DNA of 64,000 nucleotides from Tricharina praecox. Lineage: Eukaryota. Both the position numbers and the translations under genes were made by a program. Below, piece after piece: positions 10,194-28,904 of the stretch. Positions within the stretch are counted from its first letter, which is position 1. Every line of letters starts with the position of its first letter. The notes beneath the pieces were generated by a model, which ran no database searches, was not told the origin of the DNA, and saw only the letters and a list, made by a program, of their open reading frames with translations. The stretch is from contig NW_026250412.1 of the NCBI RefSeq assembly GCF_024521635.1, positions 992,001 to 1,056,000 on the forward strand, in the 5' to 3' direction.

Positions 10194-10318
10194 AAAAACC
10201 TTCACCACCACCGGTGGGTGGCTTGGAAACACCCTCTTCTCCAGGGAGTCGAACGACGTGACTTCAGAGTCGAGGCGGTGGCCTAGCCGACAAGGCCACG
10301 CGGGGGGTTTTTTTCCGT
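10194..10318 (-). ncRNA. Family A, copy A2
   Basis: Reverse complement of the A consensus incl. B-box GTTCGACTCC; compensated CGAC/GTCG stem; TTATAA upstream at ~10341. Confidence 0.55.
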
Positions 10319-11391
10319 GAGTGAAGATTTGTGTCAACCCTTATAAACCCCTCTCCACCCCTCTCCCCGGCTCTATTACCAGCTGGGCTCAACGGCTCCG
10401 CCCCTCACCCAGTGATCTCCCTTCTACATACGTCACTCCTCTTTGATCGCAATGATGAAGAGTCGCAGCACCAAGAGTAACAGGTCTGCTAGTACTAACA
10501 TGCATACACCACCGTCAACACGGGACGTCGTGAGATAGCTACAAATGCATATAGGATTTGGACTACCATATTGCCGAGGATAGGTATTTTATGGCGATGG
10601 TCTGCCAGCGCTTCCAGGAAGCAGTATTTCTTTGAGGTGACTTCGGCGACGCACAGCTAAAGGCATAAACGCTGAGAAGCAACCAGCCCACATCTTATGC
10701 AGGGAAAACTCCTTGAAAACTCCTTGATGATGTCAGCGGAATACAAGGCAATACACTGCACCCAGTCCAAAAAAGCTCTTTTTTGAATTCGGTACCTAGC
10801 GTACTGGTGTTGACGAGTACTACAGTGTGCTGTCCTTACGACTACTGTGGGCTGTAGGCTATAAGTGCACTCACTACTCTACTGGTATGCCACGAAGTTC
10901 ATGCTCCTATTACTACCGGAGCTTGATGATGAGAGCCGGTTTTAATTAATCCCATGCACTTTGCTAAAACAAATGGTTTTTTTCTTCTTTCATCAATCGC
11001 GCGTAGCCTAACCTAAACTGTGGTGATGTACCCACATACAGGTCCAGTTTTTGTGTCTACGCTCGGTGAGGGAAAGGACTCCTGATTCATTGTGTTGCCC
11101 CCTCCCTTAGTTATTTCACCGGTAAGTAATTCTTCCGACCGTAGCATTCGTTGGAGAAAGAGAGAGAGATCTTTCTGCTTTATTTCGCATGCAGCCTATC
11201 TAGACTATGGCTAACCGTCGCACTGCTTTTCTGCCCACTCTGACTGGCCGGGGGTTAGGACCTCGTTACTAGCCAGCACGATGTGGCGCCGGTAGCATTC
11301 GTTAGGGGCGCTTACTGCATGTCCAATCACTCGCCGTCCGTGTAACAATGCATGTATGCCACCTGCAAAACCAATATTGCGACAAAAAATC

Positions 11392-11513
11392 AAAAACCTT
11401 CACCACCCCCGGTGGGTGGCTTGGAAACCCCTCATCCCCAGGGAGTCGAACGGCGAATTTTCAGCGCCGAGGCGGTGGACTAGCCGACAACGCCACGCGG
11501 GGGTTTTATCCGT
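11392..11513 (-). ncRNA. Family A, copy A3
   Basis: Near-consensus copy on the minus strand. Confidence 0.55.
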
Positions 11514-12437
11514 GAGTGAAGATTGGCGTCAAACCTCATAAACCCCTCCCGCTCTGCTACCAGCACGTGGACGGCTCCGTCCCCTACCCGGTGTTCTCCC
11601 CAAAGAGTAACAGCTATGCGGGCACCAACGCACACCATCGTTAACACAGGATATCCATTATGAGATAGCTTCAATTACAGGATATGGACTATTTCCTATA
11701 ATATCTTACAGCGATGGTCTACCAACGCTTCAAAGCCGGATTTTTGGAGGTAAGTTCAGCGGCGTTACGCGTACAGCTGAAGGGATAAACCTTCAGAGCC
11801 AGTCTACCCACTGTGTATGAAAGGAAAACTTCTTGATGAATGTCAGCGGATTACCAGGCAATACACTGCACCCAGTGCAAAAAGCCCGTTTTGGACTCGG
11901 TGGCGTACTGGTTTTGCCAGGGCTCGTTCGCCAATGCCTCTCCAGGATGGAAAGCGGCAAATGGAGAGATAGGGAACACACAAGGAGAAAGAGAAGAGAG
12001 TGGTTGATCGTCTATTCTGTAGATGTCATCGCCCCGCTACAGCGGTACTACTGTGGGCTGTAGGCTTTAGGTGCGCTCCGTACAGGCCTGTCAATACGTT
12101 CGTTACTCTTATTACTACCGAAGCGTGATGGGCATAGTCAATTTCACTTCATCCGAAGCATTGCTGAAACATATCCTTTTTTCTTCCTTCATCAATGCCG
12201 CACAGCCTATCTAAACTGTAGCGATGTATGTACACATACTAGTCCAATTTTCTTGTTTGCACCCGGTGAGAAATAAGGAATCATTACGGAGACCCCCCTG
12301 CCTAAGGTATATCACCGGTAGGTAATCCTTCCGATCGCAGCACCCCCTGTGGCGCCATATGACAATCAAATTATCGCACTCGACTACCGAGTGACATCAC
12401 ATGTATGCCATGCGCAAAACTAGAGCGGCAAAAGAAC

Positions 12438-12532
12438 AAAAACCTTCACCACCCCCGGTGGGGGGCTTGGAAACCCCTCTTCCCCAGGGGAGGCGGTGGC
12501 CTAGCTGACAAGGCGACGCGGGGTTTTTTCGT
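12438..12532 (-). ncRNA. Family A, copy A4 (internal deletion removing B-box; probable pseudo-copy)
   Basis: CCCCAGGG joins directly to GAGGCGGTGGCC; ~25 nt missing relative to A3. Confidence 0.4.
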
Positions 12533-25812: not shown

Positions 25813-25980
25813 ATGTCAATACAATACCTGATCTGCTGCTATTGCTACAATCACGGACGGCACCACCGTTTGTACAAGTCGGAGAACGGCTGTCACGCCT
25901 GCGGTCATAGATGGTTGCATGTGGATAGTAATGGTACGAAATGCTGTCCAGATTATTACGGACCGTCGGAATCCTTTTGA
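25813..25980 (+). CDS. small Cys/His-rich putative zinc-binding protein (55 aa)
   Basis: MSIQYLICCYC...GCHACGHRW...KCC; TATAAA at ~25522 upstream. Confidence 0.4.
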   Translation: MSIQYLICCYCYNHGRHHRLYKSENGCHACGHRWLHVDSNGTKCCPDYYGPSESF

Positions 25981-28419
25981 AGGGAGGGAAGGAGGGGGGG
26001 AGGACATGGGATGTAATGGTCGGAACGAAGAATGCGGCGGCGTGGGATTGTTTTTTCTGACGGGGGTTACCGATGAGAAATGATGGGATCATGTCCAAGG
26101 AATAATTGCTAGTTCTTGTGGCCGCTGTAGTAATCCAATTCTGTAAGGCAGTCCGAAACGTTTTGAATGTGCTGCCTCGGTCTCGTGGGTGTAATCGTTG
26201 TTTCCCGCGCTGCATGCAGCTGCCGCACCCGTGTCAACCATATCCGCGGGAAGAACTCCTGTTGATTGGCGGACTCCGCGATAAATTTATAATCCTCGAG
26301 AACACGCGCTTGTGCACAGCCCATAATCCGCTTGGGAACTCTGCGTAAACCAAGTGCTCTGTACAATACTCAACAACAACACATCAGTAGCTGCATATAC
26401 TTTCGCGCCCTATACGTCCTAGACCTTCCATCTGCCGCTGCAAGACGCCTATCAACTCACCCAGGCCAATTAAAGTTGTGGCGTTCGCTTAGGGGGCACG
26501 GAGTATCATGTGCTTCCTGTACGGGCGCATCATCGGCGGGTAGGCTCACCGGATAATGCGAAGGAAAGGAAGTAGCCGGGAGCGGAAAAAAGAAAGTGAT
26601 CGAGTGAAGGAAGAAATGAACGGGGAGAAGAAACAAGAAAAGAAGCGTATGTATCATCGAGATTTAACGATGCACTGGAAATAAGCTCACCCGAGATCAA
26701 ATGGTCTGCAATCACCTGTCCTAACCACCCAAGCCTTCCAACCCACTGATTTGAAACAACTCCTCCGAAGCAAAATGGGTTCGCATTGCTTTGGTGAGTC
26801 GCCCCACCTCCAACTTCCAAATCCTGCTAATGCTCGTACGTTTGTTGGTAGTGCCAGGCGGCGTACTGTCAGTCGGCGGAGTACTGGTAATTGGTGGAAT
26901 ACTAGTAATCGGCGGTCTGCTGGTCTGTGATAGTTTTACTCGCGCTGCATTCTGGCACCGCTCATCTCGGTGCCGGCTGGCTGGATTCATTTACGTGGCT
27001 GGTATTGTGGCAGTGGTGATCGCCACCAACGTCACATCGCTCCGTTGCAATTGTGTCTCGTGCGAAAAGCCAAACGACTATCAAGGATGCAAATTCATCC
27101 GCTTGGTAGTCCGTCCCGTCAGCTCCTGCTGAAGGCTACCGGTAGTTTGGACGGCAGCTGGTTGAACCTAGTCAACTGCGGGGCTTGGATGTTTACCAGT
27201 TGGGATGGAAAGTGCTGGATATTTCTTCACTTGCTTGCCCCATAACTAGGTGCACCGTGCGGTTGTGTAATCTCGGTAGTGTGCGATATGGGAATACCGA
27301 AGTTCTAGCATACCCATGAATCCACGTTCATGGGCGAGATGCGGAGCCATCCAAAACTGCCGAGAGATACATAGGAGATGTGAATATGGCAGATGTCACA
27401 AGCGGAAAATTGCGTGTAACACAGCTGCTACGGGATAGCACGCAGACAGGTTTCAAGATGTCGTCCAAGCCCGAGCAACAGGAAATAAAGGACCACCCTA
27501 TCACAACTCCGCCGTCAGCCACCGACACTCCGCCACAAATGCTCCTGCATCTTTGCCGAACCCGCCGCGAACCTTGTCATTTTCGTTCCTTCGCTGGGAC
27601 CAGCTAACACTGACCCGGCAGTTCATGCTGTGGCCCGTGCTTCAACTGCTGAAACACTCATTGCTTTTTCCCCCTTCAACCCGGTCGCTGCTCTTCTGAT
27701 GTGCCGCTAGAGACGCGGCTCGCTGCCGTGCAGGTCTCACAGGCGAAGCGAGTGATGACATTGAGCTGATGTTTCTCTCGGAATCCCCACTATAGCTGTC
27801 GTACTTACTACTTACGTCCGGAGCGAGACAACCTCCAGGATCCGAGGACATGGAGCCGGATGGAGTCAGCACACGGAAGTTCCGCACGTCTGGGTACGTC
27901 GCGATCTATACTACGGAGAGATCTCGCTGTCGATCCGAGAAGAGCAGAATACCGTTCTCTGTGATAACTACCGGATGCATGTTGCCGCAGTCGTGTAAAC
28001 TCAAGAGTAATGTTTCGGCTGTGCTCCTCCCCGGGCCGGATTATTATCCGAACGGGAATAAACGAGCAAAACAAATATATTCATTTCATAATATGTGTCG
28101 AGAATCTCCCACGCGACGCACCTGGCAGCGCCGGATACGCCAATTAACGGTTTACCTCATGCCGAATATATATGTGAGTTACGTTCCGTACGGTACGACG
28201 AGCACAAGATCAATCAGGTTCGACTTCGAGCAGTAGTCAGATATTTCGCATACTGGATGGGTATTACGATGGTAGGATATGCGACGGTGGTAGGTGGGTT
28301 GCTTATTGCGGGTTGCGGAACCCCGCCAAGTTACAAACCTTTCTGCATGCTCATAGACATTCACTCGACTGCCGAGTGACATATCATGGGGTGCGGGTGG
28401 GCACCGTCAAAACAAAACC

Positions 28420-28540
28420 AAAAACCTTCACCACCCCCGGTGGGTGGCTTGGAAACCCCTCTTCCCCAGGGATTCAAACGGTGAGCTTTCAGCACCGAGG
28501 TGGTGGCTTGCCGACAAGGCCACGCAGGGGTTTTTTCCGT
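28420..28540 (-). ncRNA. Family A, copy A9
   Basis: Full copy; compensated CGGTG/CACCG stem; TTATAA at ~28563. Confidence 0.55.
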
Positions 28541-28781
28541 GAGTGAAGATTTGCGTCAACCATTATAAACCCTCTCCGCTCTGCCACCAGCCCGCGGTTC
28601 CAATGGCTCCGTTCCCTACCAGATGTTTTCCCTTACACGTATTTCTGCTACAGCATGATGGGAATAGCCGGTTTGAATCCATTGGGGGTGCTACAATAGG
28701 TTACATTCATATTACCGCACTCGGCTACCGAGTGACATCGCATGTATGCCACTGGGGGGCAAAATAAGGCGGCAAGAAAGC

Positions 28782-28904
28782 AAAAACCTTCACCACCCCC
28801 GGTAGGTAGCTTGGAAACCCCTCTTCTTCAGTGAGTCGAGCAGCGAGATTTCAGCGCCGGGGCGGTGGCCTAGACCACAAGGCCACGCGGTTTTTTTTTT
28901 CCGT
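28782..28904 (-). ncRNA. Family A, copy A10 (tandem with A9, 362-bp period)
   Basis: Full copy; upstream flank to ~29120 matches the spacer next to A2/A3. Confidence 0.5.

Follow-up and report, generated by a model that had tools for sequence, protein, structure and literature searches.

The window analysed here is the whole 64,000-nucleotide stretch of Tricharina praecox DNA from positions 992,001 to 1,056,000 of contig NW_026250412.1, and all coordinates below are counted from its first letter. It contains a cluster of short repeated units, 13 of them over 37 kb, among which the copies of one family, family A, are about 116 bases long from an A-run to a T-run when read on the strand that carries a B-box-like motif (the B-box strand). 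A preliminary description of the same DNA had noticed that substitutions in the stems of family A are often compensated or leave G-U pairs, and had proposed that they reveal selection on a single-stranded structure and identify its strand. On balance, the sequence slightly favours reading the cluster as a family of RNA polymerase III (Pol III)-type small RNA genes, whose copies might have spread by local duplication and partly decayed.

Family A and related units

We recovered ten full copies of family A by blastn with one copy as the query, and a search of the window with a 36-base pattern gave 11 matches at three or fewer mismatches, where none was expected. Eight of the ten copies lie within 10194–28904, the region in which the preliminary description had placed its copies, but the copy it numbered A1 (6782–6898) lies outside, as does the one at 31612–31727. 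Together, the full copies and the other units span 6.7–43.7 kb.

The anatomy of a unit can be followed in the copy at 14909–15024 on the plus strand, which was identified by alignment and by model R1, a covariance model built only from the copies of another organism described below. Stem 1 pairs 14921–14927 with 14936–14942 (GTAGCCT/AGGCTAC, a compensated change from G-C to A-U), stem 2 pairs 14948–14952 with 14962–14966 (CGGCG/CGCTG, with a G-U pair), the B-box-like motif occupies 14966–14975, the 3′ stem pairs 14998–15003 with 15009–15014, and the T-run starts at 15021. The B-box-like 10-mer occurs in nine of the ten family A copies, as a motif resemblance to the general consensus. Directly past the T-run of this copy, at 15013–15050, lies a further B-box-like sequence, GGTTCGAGCC, with copies of GGTGAAGGTTTT on both sides.

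Three more copies lie on the plus strand. The copy at 6782–6898 (blastn; model R1, E = 2.6e-07) has a G-U pair in stem 2 (CGGCG/CGTCG) and an A-C mismatch in stem 1. The same stem 2 variant occurs at 21866–21981 (model R1), together with a C-A mismatch in the 3′ stem. The copy at 19417–19531 has G-U pairs in both stem 2 (CGGTG/CGCCG) and the 3′ stem (CCACCT/GGGTGG), and the outer pair of its 3′ domain is compensated from C-G to U-A. On the minus strand, 10195–10314 (blastn, model R1) combines a compensated G-C to A-U change in stem 2 (CGAC/GTCG) with two transversion mismatches, 11393–11509 (blastn, model R1) has two neighbouring mismatches in stem 1, and 12439–12529 (alignment, model R1) has lost stem 2 and the B-box-like motif through a 25-base internal deletion. 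The copy at 28421–28536 (minus; model R1) has a compensated C-G to U-A change in stem 2 (CGGTG/CACCG) and a C-A mismatch in stem 1, and 28783–28900 (minus; model R1) has one G-U pair in stem 2 (CGGCG/CGCTG) and two in the 3′ stem (CTACCT/GGGTGG). The copy nearest to the consensus, 31612–31727 (minus), gives the best match to model R1 (E = 2e-12) and served as the reference for the depth mapping described below. Between 10116 and 12600, three identically oriented units repeat every 1.05–1.2 kb as a decayed tandem array, in which the units are 88% alike and the spacers 68–72% alike.

Further units belong to other subfamilies or are degenerate. The unit at 38921–39026 (plus; alignment; model R1, E = 4e-10) shares with 14909–15024 the 5′ end, the 5′ hairpin, the 3′ module and the flanks, but the approximately 50 bases at its centre are unrelated in the alignment, and no B-box-like motif was found inside it. 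Over the larger loci, 14871–15201 and 38883–39200, the flanks and both ends of the unit are about 90% alike around the unrelated central 50 bases, a pattern that resembles the replacement of a cassette or a recombination event between subfamilies. The 38921–39026 unit also has GGTTCGAGCC, followed by a run of 11 T. A degenerate unit with a truncated 5′ hairpin lies at 43610–43714 (plus; alignment, model R1). A further unit is split into a 5′ piece at 40918–40942 (plus; nhmmer) and a 3′ piece at 42632–42755 (plus; model R1 match 42667–42754). The 3′ piece comprises the other arm of the 5′ hairpin together with a T-arm-like hairpin, the 3′ module and the T-run. The sequence between the pieces (40943–42631) is a 1.69-kb element that interrupts the loop of the 5′ hairpin; its terminal inverted repeats of 35 bases are 77% complementary, and its frames of at least 90 residues contain no Pfam domain. 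An isolated partial 3′ module was found at 33118–33160 (minus; blastn and alignment).

The conserved sequence begins upstream of the units themselves. In all 11 of 11 units, the A-run is preceded at a distance of 31 bases by an A/T-rich, TATA-like heptamer, which has the strict form [TC]ATA[AGT] in seven of them. The heptamer also occurs in the split unit, at 40887 (−31), and with the same spacing in five of the seven distinct foreign copies described below. In the example at 6731–6781 (plus), it is preceded by the block AGCAGAGCG, which is kept upstream of most family A copies and of five of the seven foreign copies; both families align without insertions or deletions from this block to the A-run, although the sequence of the spacer differs. 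Pairwise identity among six long copies averages 0.76 upstream, 0.88 over the core and 0.65 downstream; it reaches 0.91 just before the start and 0.93–0.97 over the 3′ module, falls to 0.45–0.57 directly past the T-run and recovers over a CACTCGG/CCGAGTG hairpin about 45 bases further on. This downstream island (for example 6941–6961, with an identity of 0.77–0.84 after a trough of 0.45) takes the form of TCACT followed by CACGTGA in other window copies and at the foreign loci L004–L007. TTTT ends all 13 window units and all seven foreign copies, usually followed by a second T-run. The upstream motifs and the limits of conservation fit a putative transcription unit controlled by an upstream promoter and read on the B-box strand. 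Four units, belonging to different subfamilies, share a further block, TTTAATCATCAT ... GGCAGATTACA ..., located 30–90 bases past the T-run (15060–15200, 22050–22140, 39080–39200 and 42830–42900).

The 3′ part of the unit is repeated far beyond the family A body. We mapped contigs of four public metagenome runs on 31500–31860 at 80% likeness. In the best-covered run, the summed word depth was 6.6 over the unique flank and about 62–69 over the family A body, corresponding to about nine to ten copies, but about 1400–1650 over 31612–31650, a 39-base 3′ hairpin module. In run X1, the contigs that continue past the module into unlike sequence number 40 on one side and 25 on the opposite side; run X3 contains the module alone, in three contigs. 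Only one variant above 3% was found within the module, a scan of viral contigs for it gave no matches, and in the window it is joined to at least four different bodies. The contrast in depth implies that copies of the family A body are clustered locally and that only the module is highly repeated, on other bodies, although the pile-up cannot be assigned to one genome because the runs are metagenomes.

Pairing in the stems

Pairing was counted over the 18 base pairs of the preliminary description in ten copies (172 cells, read on the B-box strand), and the alignment and the per-pair list contain all nine variant stems that it had quoted. Standard pairs make up 94.8% of the cells, eight cells are G-U and nine are unpaired. 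True mismatches had been acknowledged before, but nine in 172 cells is more than had been counted, and those overlooked include two in 10195–10314 and one C-A in 28421–28536. Six of the nine are transversion mismatches; the other three are A-C (stem 1 of 6782–6898, stem 1 of 28421–28536 and the 3′ stem of 21866–21981) and would therefore be G-U pairs on the other strand.

Three double changes keep the pair, in stem 1 of 14909–15024 and in stem 2 of 10195–10314 and 28421–28536, compared with a mean of 0.7 in shuffled alignments, of which eight in 500 reach three; controls with slid partners gave zero to two. When the structure is extended by pairs from RNAalifold, namely a CCCT/AGGG stem, a constant G-U pair lengthening the 3′ stem, together with an enclosing CC/GG pair, the compensated change of 19417–19531 becomes a fourth. 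Four compensated pairs, each in a different copy, stand against 0.9 expected, and one shuffle in 500 reaches four, a result that is partly post hoc because the extension was picked after the RNAalifold output had been seen. We take these counts as modest support for pairing under selection within the window.

Transitions outnumber transversions by 17:5 cells at G/C positions in the stems, against 13:14 elsewhere (p = 0.045), but the enrichment disappears when distinct events are counted (p = 0.73). Changes affect 8 of 19 CpG-involved positions and three of four at CpA, a clustering that would be expected for methylated repeats. On the other hand, a general bias towards C>T does not explain the stems, since changes outside them on the B-box strand comprise five C>T and ten G>A, although this contrast with the stems is not significant (Fisher p = 0.11).

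A homologous family in another organism

A search of metagenomes with a gapped pattern of the module identified a foreign family, that is, homologous and longer units of another organism. The scan gave 32 loci, of which 11 are true relatives, representing seven distinct sequences, and 21 are chance matches. The foreign units are about 140 bases long, and three of them lie in one orientation on a single 13-kb contig. Their centre is longer than that of the window units and differs from it, whereas the A-run and the bases next to it, the 5′ hairpin, the B-box-like motif, the 3′ module and the T-runs are common to both. The foreign B-box-like motif sits in a good T-arm-like hairpin. As in the window, conservation is confined to the unit: among five distinct copies, identity is 0.94 over the core against 0.59 upstream and 0.50 downstream. 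One foreign copy type matches the others only from the A-run to the T-run and has no TATA-like motif.

The RNAalifold structure of the foreign family, which was predicted on the B-box strand, has 46 pairs, eight of them G-U in all or most copies. Seven one-sided changes in its helices all remain paired through G-U, two cells are broken, none is A-C, and one pair is compensated in two copies. Counted as G-U against A-C, this gives 6:0 (p = 0.03), and pooling window and foreign events gives 11:3 (p = 0.057). In all seven copies, folding is more stable on the B-box strand than on the complement, by 6–13 kcal/mol, with z-scores of −1.7 to −3.0 compared with −0.2 to −2.2 for the complement.

Model R1 carries over to the window: it matches 13 window units at full length, all on the B-box strand, with E-values from 2e-12 to 1e-3. 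In the combined alignment of 20 sequences, which was fitted to the structure and so leans towards pairing by construction, 96.4% of the cells are paired. Six pairs (nine cells) are doubly changed, against 1.6 (1.8) in shuffles, and none of 500 shuffles reaches these values; G-U occupies 18 window and 58 foreign cells, A-C two window cells and no foreign cell. The 5′ hairpin varies across subfamilies by wobbles on the B-box strand only (38921–39026, the split unit and the foreign family), and in the split unit one U-A pair is replaced by C-G. With the foreign family and the other subfamilies included, the proposed selection on a single-stranded fold gains better support than the three or four compensated double changes of the window provide, though the samples are small.

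Interpretation of the cluster and its setting

Comparison with known families left the units without a match. Rfam gave no match at the gathering score over the whole window and just noise, at E-values up to 1–10, for the foreign loci, two units and 12900–14200; its tRNA family did not match two units up to E = 10. ARAGORN reported no transfer RNA (tRNA) gene in the window or in nine foreign loci and none in 19 units, whether at default or at lowered thresholds; the 80% threshold produced one weak call, in the deleted copy 12439–12529 only. By these two programs, the units are likewise not 5S ribosomal RNA (rRNA) genes. The Pol III boxes assigned to the B-box strand in the preliminary description therefore persist as resemblances to a general consensus, for the A box as for the B box, and lend no evidence of tRNA descent. 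No transposon protein domain, including reverse transcriptase, was found in 122 open frames of at least 90 residues over 9–52 kb, and no target-site duplications were found at the unit boundaries that could be defined in the window. A Helitron-type end was rejected because no CTRR-like terminus, the usual hallmark, lies beside the hairpin, and a miniature inverted-repeat transposable element because the ends share only an eight-base inverted match of A-run and T-run, without long terminal inverted repeats. The listings and abstract openings of the open-access literature searched contained no description of the element.

On balance, family A would be one subfamily of a clustered, multi-copy set of Pol III-type small RNA genes in this ascomycete. 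Each gene on the B-box strand would consist of a TATA-like motif, 31 bases, the A-run, a body of about 116 bases and one or two T-runs. In the predicted RNA, the A/C run at the 5′ end would pair, as a closing stem, with a G/U run immediately preceding the 3′ module, and this stem would enclose a 5′ hairpin (the GTGGCCT stem, stem 1) and one or more variable central arms, represented in family A by the CGGCG stem (stem 2) and the B-box-like motif; next would come the 3′ hairpin module, which is highly conserved and framed by a CC/GG pair, and then U's. Pairing might be under at least weak selection on this strand, so that transitions in the stems survive as G-U or become compensated. Copies would have spread chiefly by local DNA duplication, because the promoter-like flanks travel with them, and several copies look like decaying pseudogenes. 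What the sequences show is the anatomy of the units, their homology with those of a second organism, variation that is compatible with the structure and the limits of conservation, whereas their transcription, the polymerase responsible and a role in the cell are inferred. The family may be selfish, in the manner of short interspersed nuclear elements (SINEs), or serve the cell.

Several results weigh against an RNA gene family, and some of them would be expected of a DNA-level repeat without any RNA role, whose hairpins are incidental in G+C-rich sequence. The units match neither an Rfam family nor tRNA. In the window, G-U outnumbers A-C by 8:3 cells (p = 0.23) and, with shared changes counted once, by 5:3 (p = 0.73); both single transition mismatches in stem 1 are A-C. 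The window copies thus do not establish the strand, as had been proposed from their G-U pairs, and the argument from ten paralogues is suggestive and agrees with the outside evidence but is not significant alone. A count over all genomic copies, which had been recommended, would add little, since the depth of the family A body indicates about nine to ten copies, as many as already lie in the window. Minimum free energy favours the B-box strand in five of 11 units, disfavours it in five and ties in one, and the full family A copies do not exceed dinucleotide shuffles in folding stability (z between −0.03 and −1.5 in eight of nine, +0.87 in one; most window units are above −2). The stems are no more conserved than other columns, with 23 changes in 36 stem columns and 36 in 67 non-stem columns. 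A T-run ends both strands, so that the terminator alone leaves the strand undecided. The foreign copies, drawn from a few related assemblies, cannot be treated as independent, and their unpaired columns lean to C>T and A>G by 4 to 2, so that the 6:0 in their helices may partly reflect mutation bias. For a DNA-level repeat, the excess of G-U and of compensation would come from chance, from C-to-T mutation biased to CpG and CpA on methylated repeats, where transitions are concentrated, or from template switching at quasi-palindromes, and the region is a mosaic of decayed repeats. We nevertheless regard such a repeat as distinctly improbable. The compensated pairs in four copies exceed expectation, and the bias outside the stems is reversed. 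In two organisms, conservation is far higher in the core than in the flanks and changes sharply at the A-run and at the T-run, and the ends are conserved across organisms around a centre that has been replaced yet remains a hairpin. Moreover, stems of five to seven pairs with loops of five to nine bases, as in family A, are too short for cruciforms. The B-box strand itself is favoured by the promoter-like motifs, the conservation limits, the foreign family and model R1.

The main rival is a SINE superfamily with a shared tail, in which Pol III transcripts with varied tRNA-related heads and bodies would carry one 39-base 3′ tail, recognised by the reverse transcriptase of a partner long interspersed nuclear element (LINE), and would be copied by retroposition; the changes that preserve stems would then reflect the needs of the RNA intermediate. 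We consider it rather unlikely. The depth of the module relative to the family A body and the flank, the divergence of contigs on both of its sides and its association with at least four bodies are what a shared tail would produce, as are the A-box-like and B-box-like motifs, judged against the general consensus, and the foreign copy type that is shared only from the A-run to the T-run without the TATA-like motif. However, all 11 window units carry the upstream TATA-like motif and spacer, which retroposition would not copy, and their transfer with the units is a poor fit with simple retroposition. The copies also share flanks in groups within a dense local cluster, whereas copies of the module alone have unlike flanks elsewhere, and the definable boundaries lack target-site duplications. 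The units end in T-runs without an A-rich or simple-repeat tail, tRNA homology is not detectable by ARAGORN or Rfam, and the open frames contain no reverse-transcriptase domain. A small non-autonomous retroelement with long terminal repeats (LTRs) is a very remote prospect. In that case, an upstream TGGTAGCAGAGCGG block would be the primer-binding site, family A a structured leader and the tandem array at 10.1–12.6 kb a series of LTR-internal-LTR units; the block starts with TGG and complements a tRNA-like 3′ end in CCA, and the array comprises three units with a period of 1.05–1.2 kb and diverged spacers. Homology between differently placed copies, however, begins just about ten bases before the block, so that no LTR adjoins it, and no TG...CA terminus occurs there. 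The subfamilies of 14909, 38921, 19417 and 40918 lack the block yet keep the TATA-like motif and its spacing, and the 122 open frames over 9–52 kb contain no gag or pol remnants.

Among known systems, the small RNA genes envisaged here can be compared with animal vault RNA and Y RNA genes and yeast U6, which are transcribed by Pol III from mixed or upstream promoters and have paired ends. The units are like them in the TATA-like motif near −30, the T-run terminator, the length of about 100–140 bases and a B-box-like motif inside the unit, or right after the T-run in the type of 14909 and 38921. As in these genes, the 5′ and 3′ parts are conserved while the centre varies among paralogues, and the genes form small clusters. 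They differ in being far more numerous, with many decayed, and in having no sequence or covariance match in Rfam; for vault and Y RNAs, to our knowledge, no partner protein is known from ascomycetes. Arrays of tRNA or 5S rRNA genes likewise consist of small Pol III-type units arranged in tandem or nearly so, with spacers that have diverged, but the window units are neither by ARAGORN and Rfam. Fungal tRNA-related SINEs such as AfuSINE2 of Aspergillus fumigatus, some of which have LINE-like tails (PMC5063351), come nearest in the literature searched and are also short multi-copy units with A-box-like and B-box-like motifs and several heads or bodies on one common 3′ region. The window units differ in having no detectable tRNA homology, a conserved upstream TATA-like motif and spacer, and T-runs at their ends instead of an A/T-rich or trinucleotide-repeat tail, and in their dense clusters with shared flanks, in which neither target-site duplications nor a LINE partner was seen.

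A more far-reaching form of the small RNA gene interpretation, which we offer tentatively and think unlikely, is a new lineage-specific class of Pol III small RNA in Pezizomycete-like fungi, with an exchangeable central arm on a constant scaffold. This scaffold would consist of the 5′ hairpin, the closing stem and the 3′ module, the last of which is almost unchanged between organisms. If so, the paralogues would differ in what they recognise, as vault, Y or guide-type RNAs do, and the central swap between 14909 and 38921 would represent functional diversification rather than decay. If transcribed, the units would represent, in a fungal class that has received little study, either a family of small structured RNAs not described before or an atypical SINE-like family equipped with an upstream promoter of its own. 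Because the 39-base module is conserved across organisms and repeated on the order of a hundredfold in the best-covered run, it might provide a handle for the whole family and for a protein or retroelement partner.

The cluster lies among other repeats and genes. A non-coding repeat family of about 1.0–1.4 kb, with copies 78–85% alike, occurs at 13020–14441, 20535–21769, 29689–31110, 39271–40261 and 50055–51014 (minus strand). Within about 1 kb of each of the first four copies, on one side or on both, lies a small unit whose orientation varies. A 92-base tandem repeat at 20467–20697, with further copies at 13046–13092 and 29761–29807, contains a CTGATGAG motif in a short hairpin and a further B-box-like motif, GTTCGACCC. 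A hammerhead ribozyme in the CTGATGAG repeat was rejected, since the copy at 13046–13092, searched within 12900–14200, has no Rfam match at E-values up to 1. The window also encodes a Swc3 domain and other eukaryotic genes, and the best named relatives of its DUF726 protein are in Pezizomycetes, at 52–58% identity.

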